A stretch of DNA of 64,000 nt from an uncultured Bacilli bacterium (lineage in GTDB: Bacteria > Bacillota_I > Bacilli_A > RF39 > UBA660). Shown here one piece after another: positions 2,308 through 63,841 of the stretch. A program made the translations under genes and the position numbers. The DNA lies in the NCBI GenBank assembly GCA_934167465.1, contig CAKPKR010000001.1:359732-423731 (forward strand), given 5' to 3'. The notes under the pieces are model-generated. The model ran no database searches, was not told the origin of the DNA, and saw only the letters and a list, made by a program, of their open reading frames with translations. How positions within the stretch are numbered: position 1 is the first letter of the stretch; every line of letters begins with the position of its first letter.

Positions 2308-2736
2308 AATTTTGCTAATGAAAATGATAATGCTATAGTTGCATTTAAAACAAATAATAATGAAACTAAATTTAGAATTACTGCTATTTCAGCAAATAAA
2401 GATTTATATTATGGAACTAACGTTATAAAATTTGTATCTAAAAAGGATGATGTTGTAAAAGATCAAGAAGTAGGAAAATTAAAATTTACAAATACTTCAT
2501 TAAAAGTTGATAAAAATTTTTCGACACTTGTTACATCAATATCGAATCCAACAAGTAATGATATCGAAGTAAAAATATTTAATATTCATATAAAAGATAA
2601 AAATGGAAATGAAATTATAAAGTTAGATGGATATGTTGGAGGAATAATACCAGCAGGTGAATCAAGAGAAGTTACTTCGAATATTGATATGGATTTAAGT
2701 AAGGCTACAAGCATTGAATATGACATTGTAAATTAA
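2308..2736 (+). pseudogene. Orphan 3' gene fragment: an open frame of 143 codons with no ATG/GTG/TTG start and no ribosome-binding site. It encodes a beta-rich Ig-like, DUF4352-like C-terminal domain
   Basis: The frame opens straight after a stop at 2305-2307 and runs to the TAA at 2734. Codon usage is coding-like but no start codon is present. Confidence 0.4.
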
Positions 2737-2940
2737 GTTTGTGAAAAGACTGCCAAAAAATTAAATTATTTTCTTGACAGTTTTTTTGTTTGGAAAGTTC
2801 TTTAAAAAATAAAAGTATGAGTGTGTTACAGATAAACTAAAAATTTGAAAACTAAAAATACTATAGAAAAAAGTTTACAAATAATATTGTAAATTATATC
2901 GGTAGTATCGATTAAATAACCTTTTTTTGCTATAATAAAA

Positions 2941-3831
2941 GTGGTGATAATAATGTGGTTTATATTTACTTTAATAACTTTTATAGCATGGGGATTAGCT
3001 GATTTATACTATAAATTAGGTAACAGTAATGATAAATATAGTCATATAAAAACTGGCATCATTGTTGGTTTAATAATGGGAATACATGCAACTATATTTA
3101 TGATATTTAACAAAGAAAGTATTAATTTATTTGAAATAATTAAATATTTACCTGTTTCTTTGTGTTACATAGCAAGTATGGTTATTGGTTATAAAGGATT
3201 AAGATATTTAGAATTGTCAATTAGTTCTCCAATTCAAAATTCATCTGGAATAATTACTTCTATATTATTGTGCTTAATTTTTAAAATAAAAATAAGTTAT
3301 TTAGAAATATTAGGAATTACAGTTATTTTTATTGGTGTTTTAATTTTATCAATTTTAGAAATAAAAGAAGGAAAAAAAGAAAAAATAATTGGGAGTTTTA
3401 AATGTTTTATTGTGATTTTTCCAATTATATATGCTATTATTGATGGATTAGGTACTTTTTTAGATGCTATATATTTAGATCAGTTAGAACTAATAAGTGA
3501 AAATAGTGCTTTAATTGCTTATGAATATACATTTTTAATATATGGAATAATTATGTTAATTTATTTGAAAATTAAAAAAGAACCATTTAAATTATTTGAA
3601 GAAAAAATTAAAATTAAAGCAGCTCTATTAGAAACTTTAGGGCAATTTACTTATGTATATGCAATATCAAAAAATTCAGTTATAGCAGTTCCTATTATTT
3701 CTTGTTATTCAGCTTTATCAGTGTTATTATCTAGATTTTATTTAAAAGAAAAATTGTCAATTTTAAGTTATATAGCAATTATAATTATTTTTATCGGAAT
3801 TATATTATTAGGTATATTAGAAGAAATTTGA
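2941..3831 (+). CDS. DMT/EamA-like permease with 10 transmembrane segments
   Basis: About 10 hydrophobic helices across 296 aa, with the two-repeat organisation typical of EamA transporters. Confidence 0.5.
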   Translation: MVIIMWFIFTLITFIAWGLADLYYKLGNSNDKYSHIKTGIIVGLIMGIHATIFMIFNKESINLFEIIKYLPVSLCYIASMVIGYKGLRYLELSISSPIQNSSGIITSILLCLIFKIKISYLEILGITVIFIGVLILSILEIKEGKKEKIIGSFKCFIVIFPIIYAIIDGLGTFLDAIYLDQLELISENSALIAYEYTFLIYGIIMLIYLKIKKEPFKLFEEKIKIKAALLETLGQFTYVYAISKNSVIAVPIISCYSALSVLLSRFYLKEKLSILSYIAIIIIFIGIILLGILEEI

Positions 3832-3921
3832 TTTTTTTATTTAGAAGTAGTATAATTATATTTACTTTCTTATAAGATGTACTTGGTACATCTTTTTTAA
3901 ACTTATGAGAGGAGAATAAAA

Positions 3922-4527
3922 ATGGAAAAAGAAAAAGAATTAATGCTTAAATATAGTTTTGCTCTTGAAGTATTAAAAACGGAAATGAATATTCTAATTA
4001 AAAATTATGAATATAAAAATAACTATAATCCAGTAGAACATACAAAATCAAGAATAAAGACAAAAGAAAGTGCAATAAAAAAACTAGAAAAAAAAGGTTA
4101 TGATTTAACCTATGAAAATTTAGAAAAACATGTTCATGATATGGTTGGACTTAGAATAGTTTGTTCTTTTATGTCAGATGTTTATGAAGTAGTGGATTTA
4201 ATTAAAAATTCAAAACAATTTAAAATTAAAGAAGAAAAAAACTATATTTTACATCCAAAAGATAGTGGATATTCAAGTTATCATTTAAATGTTTTAGTGC
4301 CAATTCATTTAGATAATGAGACAGAATATGTTGAAGCAGAAATTCAAATAAGAACAATTGCAATGGATTTTTGGGCTAGTCTTGATCATAAAATTAGATA
4401 TAAATTTCCAAGTGAAATTCCAGATGAAGTAAAAGAAGAAATGTTTAATTGTTCTTTAGACATAAGAATGCTTGATAATAAAATGGAAAATCTTAGTCAA
4501 GTTATGAAAAAATATAATGAAAATTAA
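3922..4527 (+). CDS. relQ: Small alarmone synthetase: RelA/SpoT-domain GTP pyrophosphokinase, RelQ/YwaC-like
   Basis: Synthetase-domain motifs read in the translation: DMVGLRIVC, YSSYHLNV and EIQIRTIAMDFWA. Confidence 0.75.
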   Translation: MEKEKELMLKYSFALEVLKTEMNILIKNYEYKNNYNPVEHTKSRIKTKESAIKKLEKKGYDLTYENLEKHVHDMVGLRIVCSFMSDVYEVVDLIKNSKQFKIKEEKNYILHPKDSGYSSYHLNVLVPIHLDNETEYVEAEIQIRTIAMDFWASLDHKIRYKFPSEIPDEVKEEMFNCSLDIRMLDNKMENLSQVMKKYNEN

Positions 4528-5438: not shown

Positions 5439-5450
5439 GTTCTTTTTTTG
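5428..5450 (+). terminator. Rho-independent terminator (aagaactta/taagttctt palindrome followed by a T-run)
   Basis: Hairpin plus T-run overlapping the stop of the HD-domain gene. Confidence 0.5.
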
Positions 5451-5497
5451 AATATTTATTTACATATATGACATATTATTTATAGAAATAACATTTA

Positions 5498-6038: not shown

Positions 6039-8018
6039 ATGGATTATAATTATAATAGGATTGTTTTAGAACAATACTTAAATAAATTGTTTGATTATAT
6101 TTTGAAAGAATATGGTGAAAATGAACTTAAAAAATTATTTAATGATTTAATAGCTGGAAAAGAATCATGTATATTAAATAAAAATATTCAAAATGAATTA
6201 AATAAGTATTCCAAAGATACTATTAGATTAATTATAGAAAAAAATATACTATTCTCTTTAGAAAATAGTGTAGTTAATATAAAAAAAACATATTGGAAAG
6301 TTTTAAAAGATAGAACTCCAAGAATGAATTATGTTTTACTCAGTCATTACTATGAAAAATATATAGAATTATTAAGAAATAAACCAACAATTTATAATTC
6401 AGAAACAATAGAAGAATTAAATGAAAATTATAATAAAGAAATAACAAAGAGTATGATGTTAAATCAGAATTTTGATGAAATAATTAAAAATACTTCAAGT
6501 TTTAATTTAAATCATATGGAAAATTTAAATGCTAATGGTAGAACAATTAGTATAAATGGTAAAAGAAAAGGTGGAATTTTTTTAAGTAAGGAATCAGTTA
6601 TTGGATATGGTAATTTTATTAATAAAGATGATTTCTTAAAAAAAATTAAAAATACTAAAATTTATAAAGTAACTAATAATGGAACTATTAGTAGTGATGA
6701 TTTAAAAGAAATTGTTAATAATATAGAGCAAAAAATTAGTATTTCTAAAACTGAAAAAAACACTATAAAATCAGTAATTGATAGTAAAGTCAATAGAAAA
6801 GCTGGAAATTTGTTTTTAGGAAAAGATGGGATAGATTTACCAAATGGTGAATATGTAAGTGTTGAAGAACTTTCTTTAGCTATAAATAAATTTGTAACAG
6901 AACGAAATAGAAAAGCAAAAAAGAATAAGATAATTAAAATAAAAGGTATGTTAAAAGTTGGGATAGCAGCAGCTTCTTTAGCAATTTCACTATTGACGTC
7001 AGCTGTTTCAACTAATTCAAAAGAAAATATTCAGTCTAATATAATTCAATATGATGCGGATGATTTATATTCACAAAATAATAAAAAAATTTCTGCTAAA
7101 GTAGTTACTGAAGCAGTAAATTCAGTCAATAATTTAATCAATGATGTTGATGATTTAAAATTATCTGAAATAAATAACAATGATCTTTCTGATGAAGAAA
7201 ATAATAAAATTGAAACCGAAAATTTAATTTTTGATGAAAAACCAATTGAAAAAAATAATGAAGATTTATTAGAAAATAATAGTTTAAATGAAGAAAGTAG
7301 TAATTTAGAAAATTTAAATCAGGACACATCTAATGAGGAAATATCTGATAAAACTAATGATGTAATTAATGAACAAATCTCTAATGATATTAATGAAGAT
7401 ATAAAAGAAAGTAATGATAGTATAGAACAATTAGAAAATGATGAAGTAGATAATGCTATCGAAAAAGTGCAAAATCAGGTTGATAATACTCTTGAAGAAA
7501 ATGAATTAACTACTAAAAATGATAATTCTGAATTAACTGTTTTGAATTTAGATGAAGAAGAAATTCCTGTTCAAGAAGTGAAGGATGATTTTTCTAATGA
7601 AAATGTTTCTTTAGATGATAAAACTACAGAAATAAATGGTAATGATATTGCAAATTATGCTGTACAATTTGTCGGTAATCCATATGTTTATGGAGGAACT
7701 AATTTAACTGATGGTACTGATTGTTCAGGTTTTACACAAAGTGTATATTCAAATTTTGGTATTGATATTGCTAGAGATTCTAGTTCACAAATTAATTCTG
7801 GCACAAATATTGGAACAAATATAGAAGAAGCAATGCCGGGTGACTTATTGTGTTTTAATGGTCATGTAGGAATCTATATTGGAGATGGTCAAATGGTGCA
7901 TGCTGCAAATGCTAAAAGAGGAATAGTTATAAATGATGTTGATTATGACAATGAAAAAATATTAAAGGCAATAGTTCGACCTAATGGAGTTAATCAAATA
8001 CAAGCCAAAACAAGATAA
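6039..8018 (+). CDS. Secreted or membrane-anchored NlpC/P60 (C40) cell-wall peptidase with a long acidic N/E/D-rich linker
   Basis: C-terminal NlpC/P60 domain with Cys in DCSGF and His in GHVGIYIGDGQMVHA. A central transmembrane segment. Low-complexity acidic region from about aa 370 to 520. Confidence 0.8.
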   Translation: MDYNYNRIVLEQYLNKLFDYILKEYGENELKKLFNDLIAGKESCILNKNIQNELNKYSKDTIRLIIEKNILFSLENSVVNIKKTYWKVLKDRTPRMNYVLLSHYYEKYIELLRNKPTIYNSETIEELNENYNKEITKSMMLNQNFDEIIKNTSSFNLNHMENLNANGRTISINGKRKGGIFLSKESVIGYGNFINKDDFLKKIKNTKIYKVTNNGTISSDDLKEIVNNIEQKISISKTEKNTIKSVIDSKVNRKAGNLFLGKDGIDLPNGEYVSVEELSLAINKFVTERNRKAKKNKIIKIKGMLKVGIAAASLAISLLTSAVSTNSKENIQSNIIQYDADDLYSQNNKKISAKVVTEAVNSVNNLINDVDDLKLSEINNNDLSDEENNKIETENLIFDEKPIEKNNEDLLENNSLNEESSNLENLNQDTSNEEISDKTNDVINEQISNDINEDIKESNDSIEQLENDEVDNAIEKVQNQVDNTLEENELTTKNDNSELTVLNLDEEEIPVQEVKDDFSNENVSLDDKTTEINGNDIANYAVQFVGNPYVYGGTNLTDGTDCSGFTQSVYSNFGIDIARDSSSQINSGTNIGTNIEEAMPGDLLCFNGHVGIYIGDGQMVHAANAKRGIVINDVDYDNEKILKAIVRPNGVNQIQAKTR

Positions 8019-42353: not shown

Positions 42354-43682
42354 ATGAAAAAATTTATTTATTTTTTAAGTATTATGATGTTTGCAGTTAG
42401 TATTAAAGCAATAAGCCCGGAAGTTAATTATCAAGAAGGAATTTATAGTAATAGAATTGGTGATAAATTATATTCTGGTCAAATGGCTTTTATATTTATG
42501 AATGAGCATATAGTGTATTGCTTAGAACCTTTTGAGATTGTTGGTAAAACTTACTATGAAGATAGAGATTATTTAAATAGGTTTGATGAAGCTACTATTG
42601 AATATTTTGAATTAGTTGCTTATTATGGCTATAATTCAGAAAGAAATAGTATATATCACTATATGGCTGCACAAGAGATAATTTGGGAGAAAATATTAGG
42701 GGGTGATTATGTTTACTGGACAACTGGTATAAATGGGACAGGTGATATTATAAATATTGATAGTTATAAAAATGAAATAATTGATAATGTTAATGCTTTC
42801 TATATGAAACCTAGTTTTGAAGAAAAATTTTATTCCTTACCTTTTTTTGAGGAAAATTTGATTTATGATGAAAATGGAATTTTTAATACTTATACTGAGT
42901 ATGGATATGGTGGTAGTAATCAGATTGAAAGAATAGATAGTGGGTTTAAAATAACTATTTTAGAGGAAGGTGAAACTACTATTAATTATAGTAAAGTTTT
43001 AAAAACTAATAATGATACAGTAGTTTATACAGGGAAAGGTAATCAACCTTTGGCAAGTTTTGGTATTAATAAAGTTAAGTCAGGAAACTTATATATATAT
43101 GGCAGAGAATATGCAACAAGACTTAGTTTGATCTTTTATGATAACAAAACTAAAGAACGAATAAATGATGTTGATTTTAATGTAAAAGAATTAGATGATA
43201 ATTGGGGAAAATGGAATGGTGTTTATAATTATGGTGTTGCAATTGGTGAAGGAAAATATACAATTGAGGTGAATGATTATGAAATTGTTGGAAATAATTA
43301 TTTTATTATTAATAAGGAAGATATGAAGAAAAATACGATAATTGAAGTTTATTTAGAAAAACATGAATCAAAAGATGAGACAAATATTGATGAACCAACT
43401 GATAAAGATTTGGATGATGATAAATCTAATGATGAAGAAATTACTTTACCTGATGATAAGGAACAAGAAGATAAACAGCCAATAGATGAAGAAATATATG
43501 AAGAACCAAATTTTAATGGTGAATCAGATATTACTAATAAAATTCAGGATATAAATGTATCTAAAAATGATAAAGTATTTGAAGAATTACCTAACACTTC
43601 AAATTATAATTTATTTATATATATATTATTAATAATAAATTTATTTATAGGAATTATTCTATATGAAAAAACTAGGAATTAG
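42354..43682 (+). CDS. Sortase-anchored surface protein with a thioester-domain-like N-terminal region
   Basis: Signal peptide. YCLEP and AAQEIIW motifs, which resemble the Cys...TQxA(I/V)W thioester motifs. C-terminal LPNTS followed by a hydrophobic stretch and a KTRN tail. Confidence 0.55.
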   Translation: MKKFIYFLSIMMFAVSIKAISPEVNYQEGIYSNRIGDKLYSGQMAFIFMNEHIVYCLEPFEIVGKTYYEDRDYLNRFDEATIEYFELVAYYGYNSERNSIYHYMAAQEIIWEKILGGDYVYWTTGINGTGDIINIDSYKNEIIDNVNAFYMKPSFEEKFYSLPFFEENLIYDENGIFNTYTEYGYGGSNQIERIDSGFKITILEEGETTINYSKVLKTNNDTVVYTGKGNQPLASFGINKVKSGNLYIYGREYATRLSLIFYDNKTKERINDVDFNVKELDDNWGKWNGVYNYGVAIGEGKYTIEVNDYEIVGNNYFIINKEDMKKNTIIEVYLEKHESKDETNIDEPTDKDLDDDKSNDEEITLPDDKEQEDKQPIDEEIYEEPNFNGESDITNKIQDINVSKNDKVFEELPNTSNYNLFIYILLIINLFIGIILYEKTRN

Positions 43683-44145
43683 TTTAATTATTATATCTAT
43701 TTTATCATTTTTAATTTTAAAAATTTATTTATTATGTGAATATGATAGTCATTCTAAAATAATTGATAGAATATTTATCAAAGGAGAAAAGTTAGAGACG
43801 AATTATATTGGTTATGTTGAAATTAAAAGTGTAAATATTAAAAGAGGAATAGTAAATGGAATTAATAATGTTATATTAAATAATAATGATATTGGAATAA
43901 TTAGAGATAATAATATCATATTAGCCGGACATGGCGTTGAAAATGTATTTGGAAGATTGAATAAAATAAATGTTTTTGATGAAGTAAAAATACATTTATA
44001 TGATAAGGATTATTATTTTACAATACATAAAAAAATAATAGTATCTAAAGATAATTTAGATTATTTAAATGAGGATTTAGTTTTAATAACTTGTACTAAT
44101 GATGATAAAAGATTGTTAGTATTAGGTACAAAAAAACCGCTATAA
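43663..44145 (+). CDS. Sortase (small, class B/D-like)
   Basis: ILAGHG (His), LVLITCT (Cys) and RLLVLG (Arg) catalytic motifs, plus an N-terminal transmembrane anchor. Confidence 0.7.
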   Translation: MKKLGISLIIISILSFLILKIYLLCEYDSHSKIIDRIFIKGEKLETNYIGYVEIKSVNIKRGIVNGINNVILNNNDIGIIRDNNIILAGHGVENVFGRLNKINVFDEVKIHLYDKDYYFTIHKKIIVSKDNLDYLNEDLVLITCTNDDKRLLVLGTKKPL

Positions 44146-46493: not shown

Positions 46494-46520
46494 ATCATTG
46501 AAAAAATGATTTATTTTTTT
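46494..46520 (+). terminator. Rho-independent terminator (atcatt/aatgat followed by a T-run)
   Basis: Hairpin plus T-run directly after the stop. Confidence 0.6.
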
Positions 46521-47063
46521 AGTATCTGTATGGAATAACTTAATAGTAAAATTTTTTTAAAAACTACCAATTTTCTTAAAAATATTAAAAAACTCTATTC
46601 AATTTTAAATATTGACTAGATCAATTTTCAAAATTGACTTAAAAAATAACAAAATTTGGTATTTTACAATGTTTTTTAAATATGTTATAAATGTTATGTG
46701 AATTCACAAAAATTATATAAGAAAGGAGGGAGTCTCCTAGATATTTTCTGTTTTTGAGCTAATTATTATAATGTTTAAGTTGATTTGAGATTTTTTAAAA
46801 TTTTAATTACTATATTTTTAATTTTATAAGTTAGCATTACACTCATATTTTTATTTCTTCAAAATATTTATTAAAATTTTATTATTTTGCATATTATAAT
46901 GTTAGTTCCTTTAGTAATATTTTAGTTTTATTTGTATGGTCTACTAGTTATTTCTCCTTTATTTAATGAAATTGTTTCAAATATAAAAAATAGATTAGTA
47001 GAATAAGCAAAAATATTAAATAAAAATATAGTAAATATAAAAAAATCTTATTAACAGAAAAAA

Positions 47064-47089
47064 ACTCCATTATGTGGAGTTTTTTTGTT
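47064..47089. terminator. Bidirectional rho-independent terminator (A7-actcca-ttatg-tggagt-T7) at the end of a 560-bp ORF-free region
   Basis: Stem-loop flanked by an A-run and a T-run, with no protein-coding gene upstream on either strand. Confidence 0.5.
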
Positions 47090-47127
47090 ATTCAAAAATT
47101 TTTTCTAAAAATATTATAAACTCCCCC

Positions 47128-47158
47128 TTGACAAAAACGTCTTGGGGGGGGGTATGAT
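47128..47158 (+). promoter_or_regulatory. Promoter TTGACA-19 nt-TATGAT whose spacer ends in a G9 homopolymer. Copy 1 of a duplicated promoter/leader block
   Basis: Consensus -35 and -10 hexamers. G9 at 47144-47152. The block CTTGACAAAAACGTCT..G9..TATGATAT..GTAAGAAAGTAGGAA recurs at 54173-54227. Confidence 0.6.
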
Positions 47159-47181
47159 ATTGTAAGAAAGTAGGAATTTAA

Positions 47182-47631
47182 ATGAAGAAATTAATTAGAA
47201 GTAGAATATTTTTGGTAATAATATGTGGTATAGTATTTACAAGTATTGGAGTTTATGCAGCAACAGCATATAAAGCAAGTGAAATATCATATACCCCAAG
47301 TGGAGGAACCGAAACAAACGTAGAAAATGCATTGAATGATATATATAATATTAAAAAGTTAGGTAATGCTACAGCAGGTGATATAGCAAGTGGTAAGACA
47401 GCGGTAGTTCAAGGAAAATTAATAACAGGAAGTTTACAAAAAAACACAGTTGGAAATTTTAGTGCTGCTATTTCGATTCAAGCATATGATTATTATGATA
47501 GTAGAAGTTCTACATTAAATTTTCAATATAAAAATGGATCAGTTACGTTAACAAATGCTGATTATTTGTCATCTAAGGATGATAGAAGATATTCTTTTAG
47601 AATAACAGGTGTATCAATTAGTGGATTATAG
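47182..47631 (+). CDS. Secreted 149-aa protein. Paralog A of the family: a shared N-terminal region of about 55 aa and a divergent C-terminus
   Basis: Signal/anchor MKKLIRSRIFLVIICGIVFTSIGVYAATAYKAS.. and a NVENALNDIYN motif. Paralog at 54228. Confidence 0.55.
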   Translation: MKKLIRSRIFLVIICGIVFTSIGVYAATAYKASEISYTPSGGTETNVENALNDIYNIKKLGNATAGDIASGKTAVVQGKLITGSLQKNTVGNFSAAISIQAYDYYDSRSSTLNFQYKNGSVTLTNADYLSSKDDRRYSFRITGVSISGL

Positions 47632-47659
47632 AAAAAAGACTTTTTTGAAAGTCTTTTTA
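47632..47659. terminator. Bidirectional terminator (aaaaagac / gtcttttt) between convergent genes
   Basis: 8-bp stem flanked by an A-run and a T-run. Confidence 0.6.
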
Positions 47660-48115
47660 TATGCATTCAACATATGTATCATTTAAACATCTAATGCAGC
47701 AGCAGCAATTTAAATTCATAGTAAAGAAACTATTAGTTGCTACAAAAGGATAAACAGAACTACCATCAGTATTTGGTGCTAAAACTCTAAATGTTGCACA
47801 ATTATCATCTATTTTTTCTATTCTGAATGCACATGAAGTATTGTCTGTTCCGTCGCATGAAGAATTAAATTCTTTAGTTGTTGGCATTTTCCATGGAGTT
47901 CCATTACCACAACAAGTGTATAACATTACTGGTCTAGTATTGCATCCCATTGTTGTAGTTCCACAACCTAAGAATCCTCTGTCACATGTATCTAGGCAAG
48001 CATCACTACATTCAGCATTTTGTTGTAAAATACAAATTACTTTTAAGATGTCTGCAACGCAATTAGAGTTTCCATTATTATTACACATATAATCCACCCC
48101 TTCTTTTATTTTCAT
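47657..48115 (-). CDS. Cysteine-rich CotY/CotZ/ExsY-like spore coat or exosporium protein
   Basis: 24 Cys in 152 aa. CAFRIEKIDDNCATFRVLAPNTDGSSV and CCCCIRCL, recalled from memory to resemble B. subtilis CotY [29 protein letters not shown] / CFCAIQCL. Needs an alignment or HMM check. Confidence 0.5.
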   Translation of the reverse strand: MKIKEGVDYMCNNNGNSNCVADILKVICILQQNAECSDACLDTCDRGFLGCGTTTMGCNTRPVMLYTCCGNGTPWKMPTTKEFNSSCDGTDNTSCAFRIEKIDDNCATFRVLAPNTDGSSVYPFVATNSFFTMNLNCCCCIRCLNDTYVECI

Positions 48116-48211
48116 TATAGTTTATGTTAGGTGTATAAAATTGTGTTAGCTATTCACCTATGATAGACAAAAAAACAAAAAATTTGGTATAATGTTATGG
48201 GGTGAAAAAAA

Positions 48212-49405
48212 ATGAGAGCTATAGTATTATCAGGTGGTGGCTCTAAAGGAGCATACCAAATTGGTGTATGGAAAGCTTTAAGAAAGCTTAAATTGAAGTA
48301 TGATGTAGTAACTGGAACTAGCGTTGGTGCATTAAATGCAGCTCTTATGGTTCAAAATAATTATTATAAAGCACTTTATTTTTGGAGAAAATTGTCTTTT
48401 AGTGATGTAATAGATGAAGAAATAGATAAAAACATAACTAAAAAAGAAATATATAAAAAATATTTGAGCGCTGTTATGAATGGTGGTATGAAAACAAATA
48501 ATTTAAAAAAAACAGTTTCAAAAGCCATTAGTGTTAAAAAAATATACAATTCTCCAATTGATATGGGGATAGTAACTGTTAAAAGTAAAGGTTTAAAACC
48601 AGTATTACTTAGAAAAAAAGATATAAAGAAAGATCAACTATATGATTATTTAGTAGCTTCAGCATCTTGTTTTCCAGCATTTTCGAAGAAAAAAATTGGT
48701 GATTCTGAGTATATAGATGGTGGTTTGTATGATAATATGCCAATTAATTTAGCAATCGATATGGGAGCAACAGAAGTAATAGCTATTGATCTTGAGGAAG
48801 TTGGAATTAAAAGAAGAGTAAAAAATAAAGAAATTCCAATCACTTATATTTCTCCAAATAATGATATTGGTTCGTTTCTTATATTTGAACATAAAATGGC
48901 TAAAAGAGCCATTCGTATTGGTTATAATGACGCAATGAAGAAATTTAAAGAACTAGATGGAAATGTATATACATTTAAAAAAGGAGAAATTAGAGATAGT
49001 TATTTAAAATATTACAATGATTTTAGAAATGAAGTTGAAAAAATAATTGAAAATAAAATGCTTGAAATAGGTGTATATAAGAAAATAATAAATTCTAAAA
49101 ACTGGGAGCAGGATTATCTAAGAATGTTAGAACAATTAGCAAAAATCTTTGAATTAGATGATTCTCTTATATATAATATGTCTAGATTTAATAAAATACT
49201 TATTAAAAAATTTGAAGACACAAGTGAAATTATTGATATTCAAGGATTTATTAAAAAGGCGGATTTTAAAAAATTGATTAATAAAAGATTACTTGTAAAA
49301 AAAATGTATTTTTATAAGAGAGAAAAATTAGCTTCTCTATTTCCAAGGGAATATTTAATGACAATATATTTAAAATTAATTATTGGAAATGCAGTTGTAT
49401 ATTAA
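48212..49405 (+). CDS. Patatin-like phospholipase
   Basis: GGGSKG oxyanion motif, GTSVG (GxSxG) nucleophile and the DGG motif. Confidence 0.8.
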   Translation: MRAIVLSGGGSKGAYQIGVWKALRKLKLKYDVVTGTSVGALNAALMVQNNYYKALYFWRKLSFSDVIDEEIDKNITKKEIYKKYLSAVMNGGMKTNNLKKTVSKAISVKKIYNSPIDMGIVTVKSKGLKPVLLRKKDIKKDQLYDYLVASASCFPAFSKKKIGDSEYIDGGLYDNMPINLAIDMGATEVIAIDLEEVGIKRRVKNKEIPITYISPNNDIGSFLIFEHKMAKRAIRIGYNDAMKKFKELDGNVYTFKKGEIRDSYLKYYNDFRNEVEKIIENKMLEIGVYKKIINSKNWEQDYLRMLEQLAKIFELDDSLIYNMSRFNKILIKKFEDTSEIIDIQGFIKKADFKKLINKRLLVKKMYFYKREKLASLFPREYLMTIYLKLIIGNAVVY

Positions 49406-54173: not shown

Positions 54174-54204
54174 TTGACAAAAACGTCTGGGGGGGGGGTA
54201 TGAT
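54174..54204 (+). promoter_or_regulatory. Promoter TTGACA-19 nt-TATGAT whose spacer ends in a G10 homopolymer. Copy 2 of the duplicated promoter/leader block
   Basis: G10 at 54189-54198. The flanking sequence is identical to copy 1, including the leader GTAAGAAAGTAGGAA. Confidence 0.6.
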
Positions 54205-54227: not shown

Positions 54228-55058
54228 ATGAAAAATATAATAAAAAGTAGAGTATTTTTAATACTAATATGTGGTTTAATATTTACTGGGTTAGGGGTCT
54301 ATGCAGCAACCACATATAAAGCAAGTGATGTAGTATATAATGCCACTGATGGAACAAGTATGAATGTAAATGATGCTTTGAATGAATTATATAATAAAAG
54401 TGGAAATAAAGGATACTACTATTATTACGAAAATGGAACAGCAATATATTATAATCCAGTAAGTGGAACAAAATGTAATGCTAGTGAAGCTGTAAGTACA
54501 ACAGGAACAAAAACAGGATGTATGAAATGGTATACATTTAACGATGATAGTGAATCATCAACAGTTAATATGATATTGGATCATAATACAACTTCTTCGA
54601 TTGAATGGAGTTCAAGCAAAAAAAATGTTGCATATGAAGAAAGTTACGTAAAACCAGAAGTTGATAAGTTGATAAGTGTTTCTAATTGGAAAGATATCCC
54701 TAGATTAATAAGTGCGGTTGAAGTAGCCAAAATAACTGGCAAGACAGATTTTAATAGTTTAGATGATACAACATGGTATTATTTAGATACTAATATTCAA
54801 ACCCAAATATCAAAATCTAAAGGAACAAGCAAGTATGCCTGGTTGTTTGACTATACAAATGGATGCACAAGTTATGGATGTAATATAGAGGATGTAAATA
54901 CATATGGGTATTGGACGTCAACAACATATGTAACGACTTCATCTGATAACTATGTGTGGAATGTAAACTGGAATGATCTTTTGTATAGCCATAATGCTAA
55001 CTATATTGGTAATGGTATTCGTCCAGTAATAACAATTTCAAAAACAAAACTTTCTTAA
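54228..55058 (+). CDS. Secreted 276-aa protein. Paralog B of the family at 47182
   Basis: N-terminal MKNIIKSRVFLILICGLIFTGLGVYAATTYKASDVVY...NVNDALNELYN is shared with paralog A. The C-terminus is unrelated, Y/W/T-rich. Confidence 0.55.
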   Translation: MKNIIKSRVFLILICGLIFTGLGVYAATTYKASDVVYNATDGTSMNVNDALNELYNKSGNKGYYYYYENGTAIYYNPVSGTKCNASEAVSTTGTKTGCMKWYTFNDDSESSTVNMILDHNTTSSIEWSSSKKNVAYEESYVKPEVDKLISVSNWKDIPRLISAVEVAKITGKTDFNSLDDTTWYYLDTNIQTQISKSKGTSKYAWLFDYTNGCTSYGCNIEDVNTYGYWTSTTYVTTSSDNYVWNVNWNDLLYSHNANYIGNGIRPVITISKTKLS

Positions 55059-62132: not shown

Positions 62133-62258
62133 AGTAGTGCTTTCAACGAGAAAGCCGAAATGATCTTTGAAAACTGAGCAAAAATGTCAATTCATAAGTT
62201 AGGAAAAAACAATTCAAAACTTAAAAAGTCTGACAATGCTTTTTTATTGTCAACATTT

Positions 62259-63841
<1,583 letters not shown>

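Follow-up and report, generated by a model that had tools for sequence, protein, structure and literature searches.

In Neisseria meningitidis, the porA promoter carries a poly-G tract between its -35 and -10 hexamers, and expression drops in the order 11G > 10G > 9G (PMC3639595). Every member of the vlp family of Mycoplasma hyorhinis has a poly-A tract in its promoter and the members switch independently, while the promoter spacer of Vmm in Mycoplasma mycoides contains TA repeats (both according to PMC10502178, which cites Citti and Wise 1995 for vlp). The poly-G tracts of Campylobacter jejuni are most often 9 nt long; insertions prevail at G8 and deletions at G11 (PMC3401435). These tracts mediate ON/OFF switching of gene expression (PMC4965091). 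In Bifidobacterium breve, sortase-dependent pili are subject to G-tract slippage, and tract length is selected in vivo (PMC9187656). Here we analyse a stretch of 64,000 nucleotides (nt) from an uncultured Bacilli bacterium (contig CAKPKR010000001.1, positions 359,732 to 423,731, hereafter the window), in which a run of nine G residues lies in the promoter spacer of a gene for a 149-amino-acid (aa) protein (gene A at locus A). With a probability of roughly 0.7, we take this G9 tract to be the variable element of a multi-locus promoter-spacer contingency system, in which slippage would act as an expression switch.

The elements around the tract are listed below in window coordinates, with gene A given by its open reading frame (ORF).

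47065-47086, + strand: terminator-like hairpin CTCCA-TTATG-TGGAG followed by T7 (read by eye; the scan did not flag it)
47123-47127, + strand: run of five C residues upstream of the -35 hexamer (read directly)
47128-47133, + strand: -35 hexamer TTGACA (read directly)
47134-47143, + strand: spacer segment before the G run, AAAACGTCTT (other cassettes have 8-10 nt here)
47144-47152, + strand: G9 homopolymer, the hypermutable element (G9-G12 at the same locus in other strains)
47153-47158, + strand: -10 hexamer TATGAT, abutting the G tract (some paralogous cassettes have TATAAT or TAAGAT)
47166-47176, + strand: ribosome-binding site GAAAGTAGGAA, conserved in all cassettes
47182-47631, + strand: gene A, 149 aa, ATG at 47182 (ORF call)

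The first-pass annotation of this DNA had described TTGACA, a 19-nt spacer ending in nine G residues and TATGAT, and all of these read as claimed at 47128-47158, with AAAACGTCTT and G9 making up the 19 nt in total. It had also judged such a run improbable by chance in low-GC DNA, and the composition of the window bears this out: at a GC content of 24.7%, about 0.0015 runs of G9 or longer would be expected. Only two G runs in the window exceed five residues, namely G9 at 47144-47152 and G10 at 54189-54198. Our consensus promoter scan accepts spacers of 16-18 nt only and therefore leaves the locus A site unlisted; the same scan returned no other promoter-like site on the + strand between 47004 and the ATG at 47182. 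By standard criteria, locus A appears to combine near-consensus hexamers with an overlong spacer and to be the only evident promoter for gene A. If transcription starts about 7 nt past the -10 hexamer, the 5' untranslated region (UTR) would be about 17-20 nt long. The hairpin at 47065-47086 would insulate the cassette from upstream transcription. An Rfam scan of the window gave one 16S rRNA and one tRNA only, and nothing at the promoter site.

The second long G run belongs to a second copy of the same arrangement, locus B.

54174-54204, + strand: cassette TTGACA-AAAACGTCT-G10 (54189-54198)-TATGAT, spacer 19 nt
54228-55058, + strand: gene B, 276-aa paralogue with the same N-terminus as gene A

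The cores of loci A and B, from CTTGAC to TATGATAT, are identical at 33 of 34 positions, against about 50% identity in the upstream flank and about 75% in the coding sequence. Other strains carry G9, G10 or G11 at locus B. The C-terminal domain of gene B is predicted to have a C-type-lectin-like fold, a fold that binds ligands and is typical of adhesins and variable proteins, and may be of the Lcl C-terminal (DUF1566) type.

The cassette is not confined to these two sites. We fetched loci L001-L089 from public metagenome contigs and metagenome-assembled genomes (MAGs), which come from the same or closely related strains unless stated otherwise. They yield a consensus cassette of TTGAC[A/T], 8-10 nt, G9-12, TATGAT, a short UTR and a ribosome-binding site. 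Further copies, at eight or more loci of public gut-metagenome contigs, stand after tuf, spoIIR, aspS and mnmE, upstream of ileS and beside a transposase, with second copies (E2 and F2) near the ileS-upstream and transposase-adjacent loci, and each of those in the same or close strains precedes another member of the gene A family. Nine distinct contigs of a single metagenome assembly, OGPT01, carry the cassette; together with the many distinct loci, this indicates at least 10 cassette loci per genome. The architecture, a homopolymer between -35 and -10, is the same in all 81 complete cassettes, and TTGAC or TTGAT is kept in every cassette at all loci and in all species examined. The non-G half of the spacer is of an A-type (AAAAAC/AAAAC) or a T-type (TTTTAC/TTTTAT) and usually ends in GTCT, replaced by CGCT, GCCT or GTCA in some cassettes.

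Spacer and UTR variants are also shuffled between loci: locus A has the A-type in some lineages and the T-type in another, and the UTR of the tuf locus is found at the spoIIR locus in L029. This pattern suggests gene conversion among cassettes. A box reading ACGAACAAAATTTCT[AG]C lies directly upstream of the -35 hexamer, at about -37 to -53, at many loci (L020-L035, L067-L087) and in a related MAG. Loci A, B and H lack this ACGAACAAAATTTCTAC box, which is conserved at many others and might serve as an UP element or as a binding site for an activator.

Tract length varies. Over all loci, 81 complete tracts were counted in consensus metagenome assemblies, with G10 in 53, G11 in 18, G9 in eight, and G6 and G12 in one each; the corresponding spacers are 18-21 nt long with a mode of 19, plus a single outlier of 15 nt (the G6 tract). 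At locus A, sequences encoding the identical protein have G9 (the window and L018) or G10, and a lineage with 93% protein identity has G10, G11 or G12. Comparison of near-clonal strains with the window is more telling. L016 differs by no single-nucleotide polymorphism (SNP) over 4238 nt, L010 by one over 6450 nt, L015 by two over 4952 nt and L011 by five over 6450 nt, and in each of these 4-6 kb alignments the sole indel is one extra G in the tract. Hypermutability of the tract is thus supported by lengths of G9-G12 among strains that are otherwise identical over kilobases. Invariance across strains, which the first-pass annotation had named among the grounds for abandoning the idea, was not seen: 7 of the 11 groups with identical flanks (60 nt upstream, 200 nt downstream) hold more than one tract length. 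The recurrence of G9, G10 and G11 within such groups suggests repeated events.

As a control, we considered the runs of eight A or T residues in the same region, of which only one of the ten varies (48205-48212), and this only between diverged strains. The length calls are reproducible, with six independent samples of one lineage giving G10 and six of another giving G11. Within a sample, the loci deviate in different directions: ERZ27287355 has G9 at locus B, G11 at C, G9 at E and G10 at F, and ERZ4562246 has G10 at C, G11 at E and G9 at F, which speaks for independent change at each locus and makes a technical offset common to the whole sample less likely. The G6 tract with its 15-nt spacer (L048, 9940-9966, the tuf locus in OGPT01) is the only large contraction among the 81; it may be a genuine locked variant or else an error of assembly.

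The tract is also well kept. Among G or C runs of at least 7 nt in all fetched loci, 84 of 85 are cassette tracts, the exception lying in L047, which comes from a different organism. The tract remains uninterrupted while neighbouring spacer bases change (AAAAAC, TTTTAT, TTTTAC, AAACAC), and in one lineage a T-to-G change extends it at unchanged spacer length. An uninterrupted G10 at many loci of a 25% GC genome is the signature of selection for mutability known from contingency loci.

The anatomy of the cassette, its multiplicity, the maintenance of its tract and a between-strain length polymorphism that is independent across loci are direct observations. In the mechanism that we propose, a conserved sigma-A-type cassette would front each of at least 10 dispersed genes in a spore-forming, low-GC human-gut bacterium, and the proteins under its control would be small, secreted or membrane-anchored, with a conserved N-terminus and a hypervariable C-terminal domain. 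Slipped-strand mispairing at replication would add or remove G residues, and each gain or loss would alter the distance and angle between -35 and -10 and so the use of the promoter by RNA polymerase. That a change of length alters transcription is an expectation drawn from the spacer-length dependence of sigma-70-type promoters, and we infer that switching is frequent and reversible within a population. As loci drift separately, a population would hold many combinations of expressed members, amounting to combinatorial surface variation. The phase-variation reading offered for gene A alone is in this way backed by strain comparison and extended to a whole family. We give even odds to the broader proposal of a genome-wide 'phasotype' system, in which at least 10 dispersed genes for variable binding proteins would each be switched by poly-G through a shared, recombining cassette.

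A family member that lacks poly-G (L088) has an ordinary spacer, of 16 or 18 nt depending on the -10 hexamer chosen, and this organism therefore seems to follow the normal spacing rules. Under such rules, most cassettes of the majority population would be in a low or OFF state and would need one or two steps to reach ON; an ON length of 18-19 nt is equally likely here. The first-pass annotation had expected gene A to be turned ON by the loss of one or two G residues, toward 17-18 nt, and this part of the proposal finds no backing in the data: spacers of 16-17 nt are never seen among the 81 tracts, and locus A has 19-21 nt only (23 sequences).

That absence also weighs against a switch as such, since it would mean that the majority population has most of its loci OFF or low, or else that the optimum here differs from 17 nt. 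So does the clustering of lengths at G10 (53 of 81) regardless of the length of the non-G part, which could reflect a mutational equilibrium or a sequence-specific role of a tract of about one helical turn. The sources themselves add a caution, being short-read consensus assemblies, some of 2-6x coverage, in which individual calls may be wrong; in one sample, loci A and B are both one G longer than in the window. These last points, together with the many contigs that end at or inside the cassette, would fit a tract that is stable in vivo and length differences that are sequencing or assembly errors. We consider this quite improbable, because calls are reproducible within lineages, loci of one sample deviate in different directions, and the 8-nt A/T runs of the same contigs are constant between near-clonal strains; the cassette is a dispersed repeat, which accounts for the contig breaks as well. 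A fixed, sequence-specific role for poly-G is unlikely but deserves more weight. The tract would then be a regulator site, or rigid A-like DNA that enables a 19-nt spacer, and would co-regulate the whole family, one-G changes being tolerated noise without any switch. G10 is the commonest length at nearly all loci and also in other species, irrespective of the non-G length, which speaks for such an element, as do the conservation of GTCT beside the tract and of the upstream ACGAACAAAATTTCTAC box at many loci, and the lack of 16-17 nt spacers. However, the modal poly-G length of 9-10 in C. jejuni has been ascribed to mutational bias alone (PMC3401435), GTCT is not universal and the upstream box is missing at A, B and H. 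Moreover, the cassettes have no linked regulator gene, near-clonal strains differ at the tract more than at any other site, and any change in its length shifts the -35/-10 geometry.

Two further readings turn on the geometry of locus A. Spacers of 19-20 nt are typical of MerR-regulated promoters, in which an activator bound in the spacer realigns the overlong distance, and locus A contains a C5...G5 inverted repeat that might suit one. We regard a MerR-type promoter as very improbable: the spacer has no operator with dyad symmetry at its centre, most cassettes lack the C5 arm, spacers range from 18 to 21 nt in length, and no MerR-family Pfam match was found among the scanned ORFs beside A and B or the recorded neighbours elsewhere. 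Almost no weight attaches to a hairpin or cruciform, formed by the C5...G9 inverted repeat, as a terminator, attenuator or promoter of slippage. A stem of the form C5-TT-GAC-loop-GTC-TT-G5 can be drawn at locus A, and a C4 run precedes TTGACA in a cassette from a mouse-gut MAG. Yet the fold has a minimum free energy of only -6.4 kcal/mol (z = -1.5) and 19 of 200 shuffled sequences fold as well; no such structure occurs at loci B and C, the two others folded; no T run follows the stem; and the element precedes the predicted start and would thus be missing from the mRNA. The C5 run to which the first-pass annotation had drawn attention is present at 47123-47127, but a role for it did not hold up, given its absence from most paralogous cassettes and the insignificance of the hairpin. 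It is locus-specific: other strains have CTCTCCC or C4, and loci B, C, D, E, G and H lack it.

Three other candidates were rejected. Promoter recognition by an extracytoplasmic function (ECF) sigma factor (AAC...CGTC) was set aside on inspection, as the spacing of 16-17 nt at the window loci compares with 20-21 nt elsewhere and is unconserved. Reiterative transcription was ruled out by the position of the tract upstream of -10, and an RNA G-quadruplex by the same position and by the insufficiency of a single G run.

We then return to the slippage-switched cassette and its closest precedents. The porA promoter, whose spacers are 15-17 nt long, resembles it in having a G tract of 9-11 nt in the sigma-70-type spacer of a surface-protein gene, with lengths that differ by one G. 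It differs in being a single locus of a Gram-negative pathogen, whereas the present system comprises at least 10 loci of a Gram-positive, spore-forming gut commensal with spacers of 18-21 nt. Most C. jejuni tracts sit inside reading frames, and this sets them apart from the tracts found here, all of which lie in promoter spacers. The likeness to C. jejuni lies in an AT-rich genome in which G tracts of at least 8 nt are rare outside phase-variable loci and modal lengths are 9-10, put down to an insertion and deletion bias that depends on tract length (PMC3401435). B. breve is likewise a human-gut commensal in which a surface structure is controlled through G-tract slippage, but its tract is intragenic, the host is a high-GC actinobacterium and two loci only are involved. 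With vlp, the present family shares the multigene organisation, a conserved slippery-tract promoter of its own for each member, a conserved leader and a divergent C-terminal part; vlp has poly-A, encodes lipoproteins and forms one cluster, in contrast to poly-G in a 25% GC genome and genes scattered beside housekeeping genes. No sequence homology to Vlp was detected (Pfam/NCBIfam) and there is no consistent lipobox, and the family is therefore an analogue of vlp and not a member. The parallel with Neisseria and Mycoplasma drawn for a single gene thus fits better than proposed, since this is a multigene family in which every copy has the same cassette.

The mechanism is already known in kind; new is a poly-G cassette common to a dispersed family of variable proteins in a gut Firmicute. 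Studies of phase variation in gut commensals have mostly dealt with the invertible promoters of Bacteroides and with a few intragenic tracts. Literature searches turned up neither this family nor any poly-G promoter switch in gut Firmicutes, which, as coverage of the literature was incomplete, is weak evidence of absence. If the reading is correct, the contingency-locus strategy of mucosal pathogens and mycoplasmas operates in commensal Bacillota too, and a metagenome-only family of about 2400 cluster representatives would gain its first functional handle, as variable, probably ligand-binding surface proteins. The broader 'phasotype' proposal would make this the first multigene family of the vlp-like, promoter-homopolymer kind outside the Mollicutes, and the apparent spread of the cassette would make slippage-based variation a general, overlooked strategy of gut commensals alongside the well-known DNA-inversion switches (invertons).

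Cassettes of this type appear to have reached other lineages as well. Three matches with G10-11 cassettes, all at contig ends, come from a related MAG of about 25% GC; one precedes the same family, and another (L038, 54-85, - strand) drives a prepilin-type gene (MKKGFTLIEL). In the mouse-gut Bacilli MAG mentioned above (33.5% GC), the cassette (L040, 550-580) stands upstream of two tandem 600-aa proteins (ORFs 604-2439 and 2516-4321) with signal-peptide-like N-termini reading ...FAYF/...YAF, which we take to resemble a TasA-type signal. L047, from a different organism of 40% GC, has two cassettes (~5450-5482 and ~7806-7836, - strand) of the form TTGACACAA[AG]GCGTC(T)-G9/G10-TATGAT, with a common upstream box, before unrelated hypothetical genes; groEL, groES and prfB are among the neighbours. 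A search of 2.9 million viral contigs gave no family protein and no cassette, and one chance DNA match only.

Contigs often start or end in or beside the cassette (L003-L005, L018, L024, L030, L031, L037-L039, L042, L052, L054, L057, L062, L075, L076). As a dispersed repeat containing poly-G, it breaks short-read assemblies, so the family is probably under-represented in MAGs; if the cassettes are what we propose, this effect would be systematic. A scan of genome contigs found the cassette in three genomes only, with all three matches in MAG CAZXOH01 at contig ends, and the small number is probably due to MAG contigs ending at cassettes.

The protein products share a signal peptide and about 85 conserved residues that contain YAATTYKASDVVYNASDGTSMNVNDALNDIYNIKKLGDAT..DI..GKTAVVQGKLITG, while the C-terminal parts, of 60-200 residues, are unrelated between members in the alignment. 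An exhaustive profile search returned about 2400 cluster representatives, and the family is known from metagenomes only. The conserved N-domain has no match among Pfam, NCBIfam and PDB sequences, and no lipobox of the form [LVI][ASTVI][GAS]C is consistent in the family alignment (A1). The proteins are presumably surface-exposed or secreted, and their C-terminal domains are probably ligand-binding.

Gene A follows this layout, with a signal peptide or membrane anchor at residues 1-26, then the conserved N-domain as far as about residue 85, and after it a C-terminal part that varies. Its basic and hydrophobic leader ends in VYA|A, in agreement with the earlier description of a signal-peptide protein. 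An AlphaFold2 model has a poor overall pLDDT of 51. It predicts, only partly with confidence, a helix at residues 3-29, in which residues 11-20 score best (block mean pLDDT 84); the rest of the model is poor. Gene A itself has no match among Pfam, NCBIfam and PDB sequences, and against PHROG there are weak matches only, the best having E = 0.0016 across 30 residues to a family of unknown function. The motif NVENALNDIYN (residues 46-56) had been likened to phage fibre N-termini, a likeness that we do not uphold, in view of these weak PHROG matches and the lack of any viral relative or of a PDB or Pfam match for the N-domain.

The segment LGDAT..DI..GKTAVVQGKLITG (gene A residues ~58-90, profile ~58-95) also occurs in 10-18 tandem copies in metagenomic proteins 1000-1600 aa long, and one such protein has an Lcl_C domain at its end; the repeat has no Pfam model. 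The member without poly-G (L088/L089, 1193-2529; gene at 1501 in L088) encodes 342 aa with a glycine-rich PF12810 domain. A long palindrome covers its promoter and could be an operator, and a divergent gene with an XRE-type helix-turn-helix adjoins; this member is apparently under conventional repressor control.

The slot of gene A, between a 103-aa ORF and a CotZ-like gene, is occupied in L064-L066 (2501-3016) by a different family allele of 171 aa and 50% identity. It has a cassette of its own, TTGATT-TTTTCGCT-G11-TATAAT, and an intergenic distance of 107 nt compared with about 690 nt, which looks like allelic replacement or cassette exchange. A very AT-rich, ORF-free segment of about 570 nt (46494-47060), upstream of the terminator-like hairpin, is absent with this alternative allele. 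Other features of the window near gene A and beyond are as follows.

43663-44145, + strand: sortase gene, 3 kb upstream of gene A
47633-47658, no strand assigned: hairpin flanked by A and T runs, lying between gene A and its convergent CotZ-like neighbour (read by eye)
47657-48115, - strand: cysteine-rich CotZ-family spore-coat gene, convergent with gene A
62258-63839, + strand: complete 16S rRNA gene near the window end

The hairpin at 47633-47658 is probably a bidirectional terminator. The A8 run at 48205-48212, just upstream of the start of a patatin-like gene (ATG 48212), reads A6, A7 or A8 elsewhere and is the only other variable homopolymer in the 6.4-kb region, the strains concerned being 30-100 SNPs apart.

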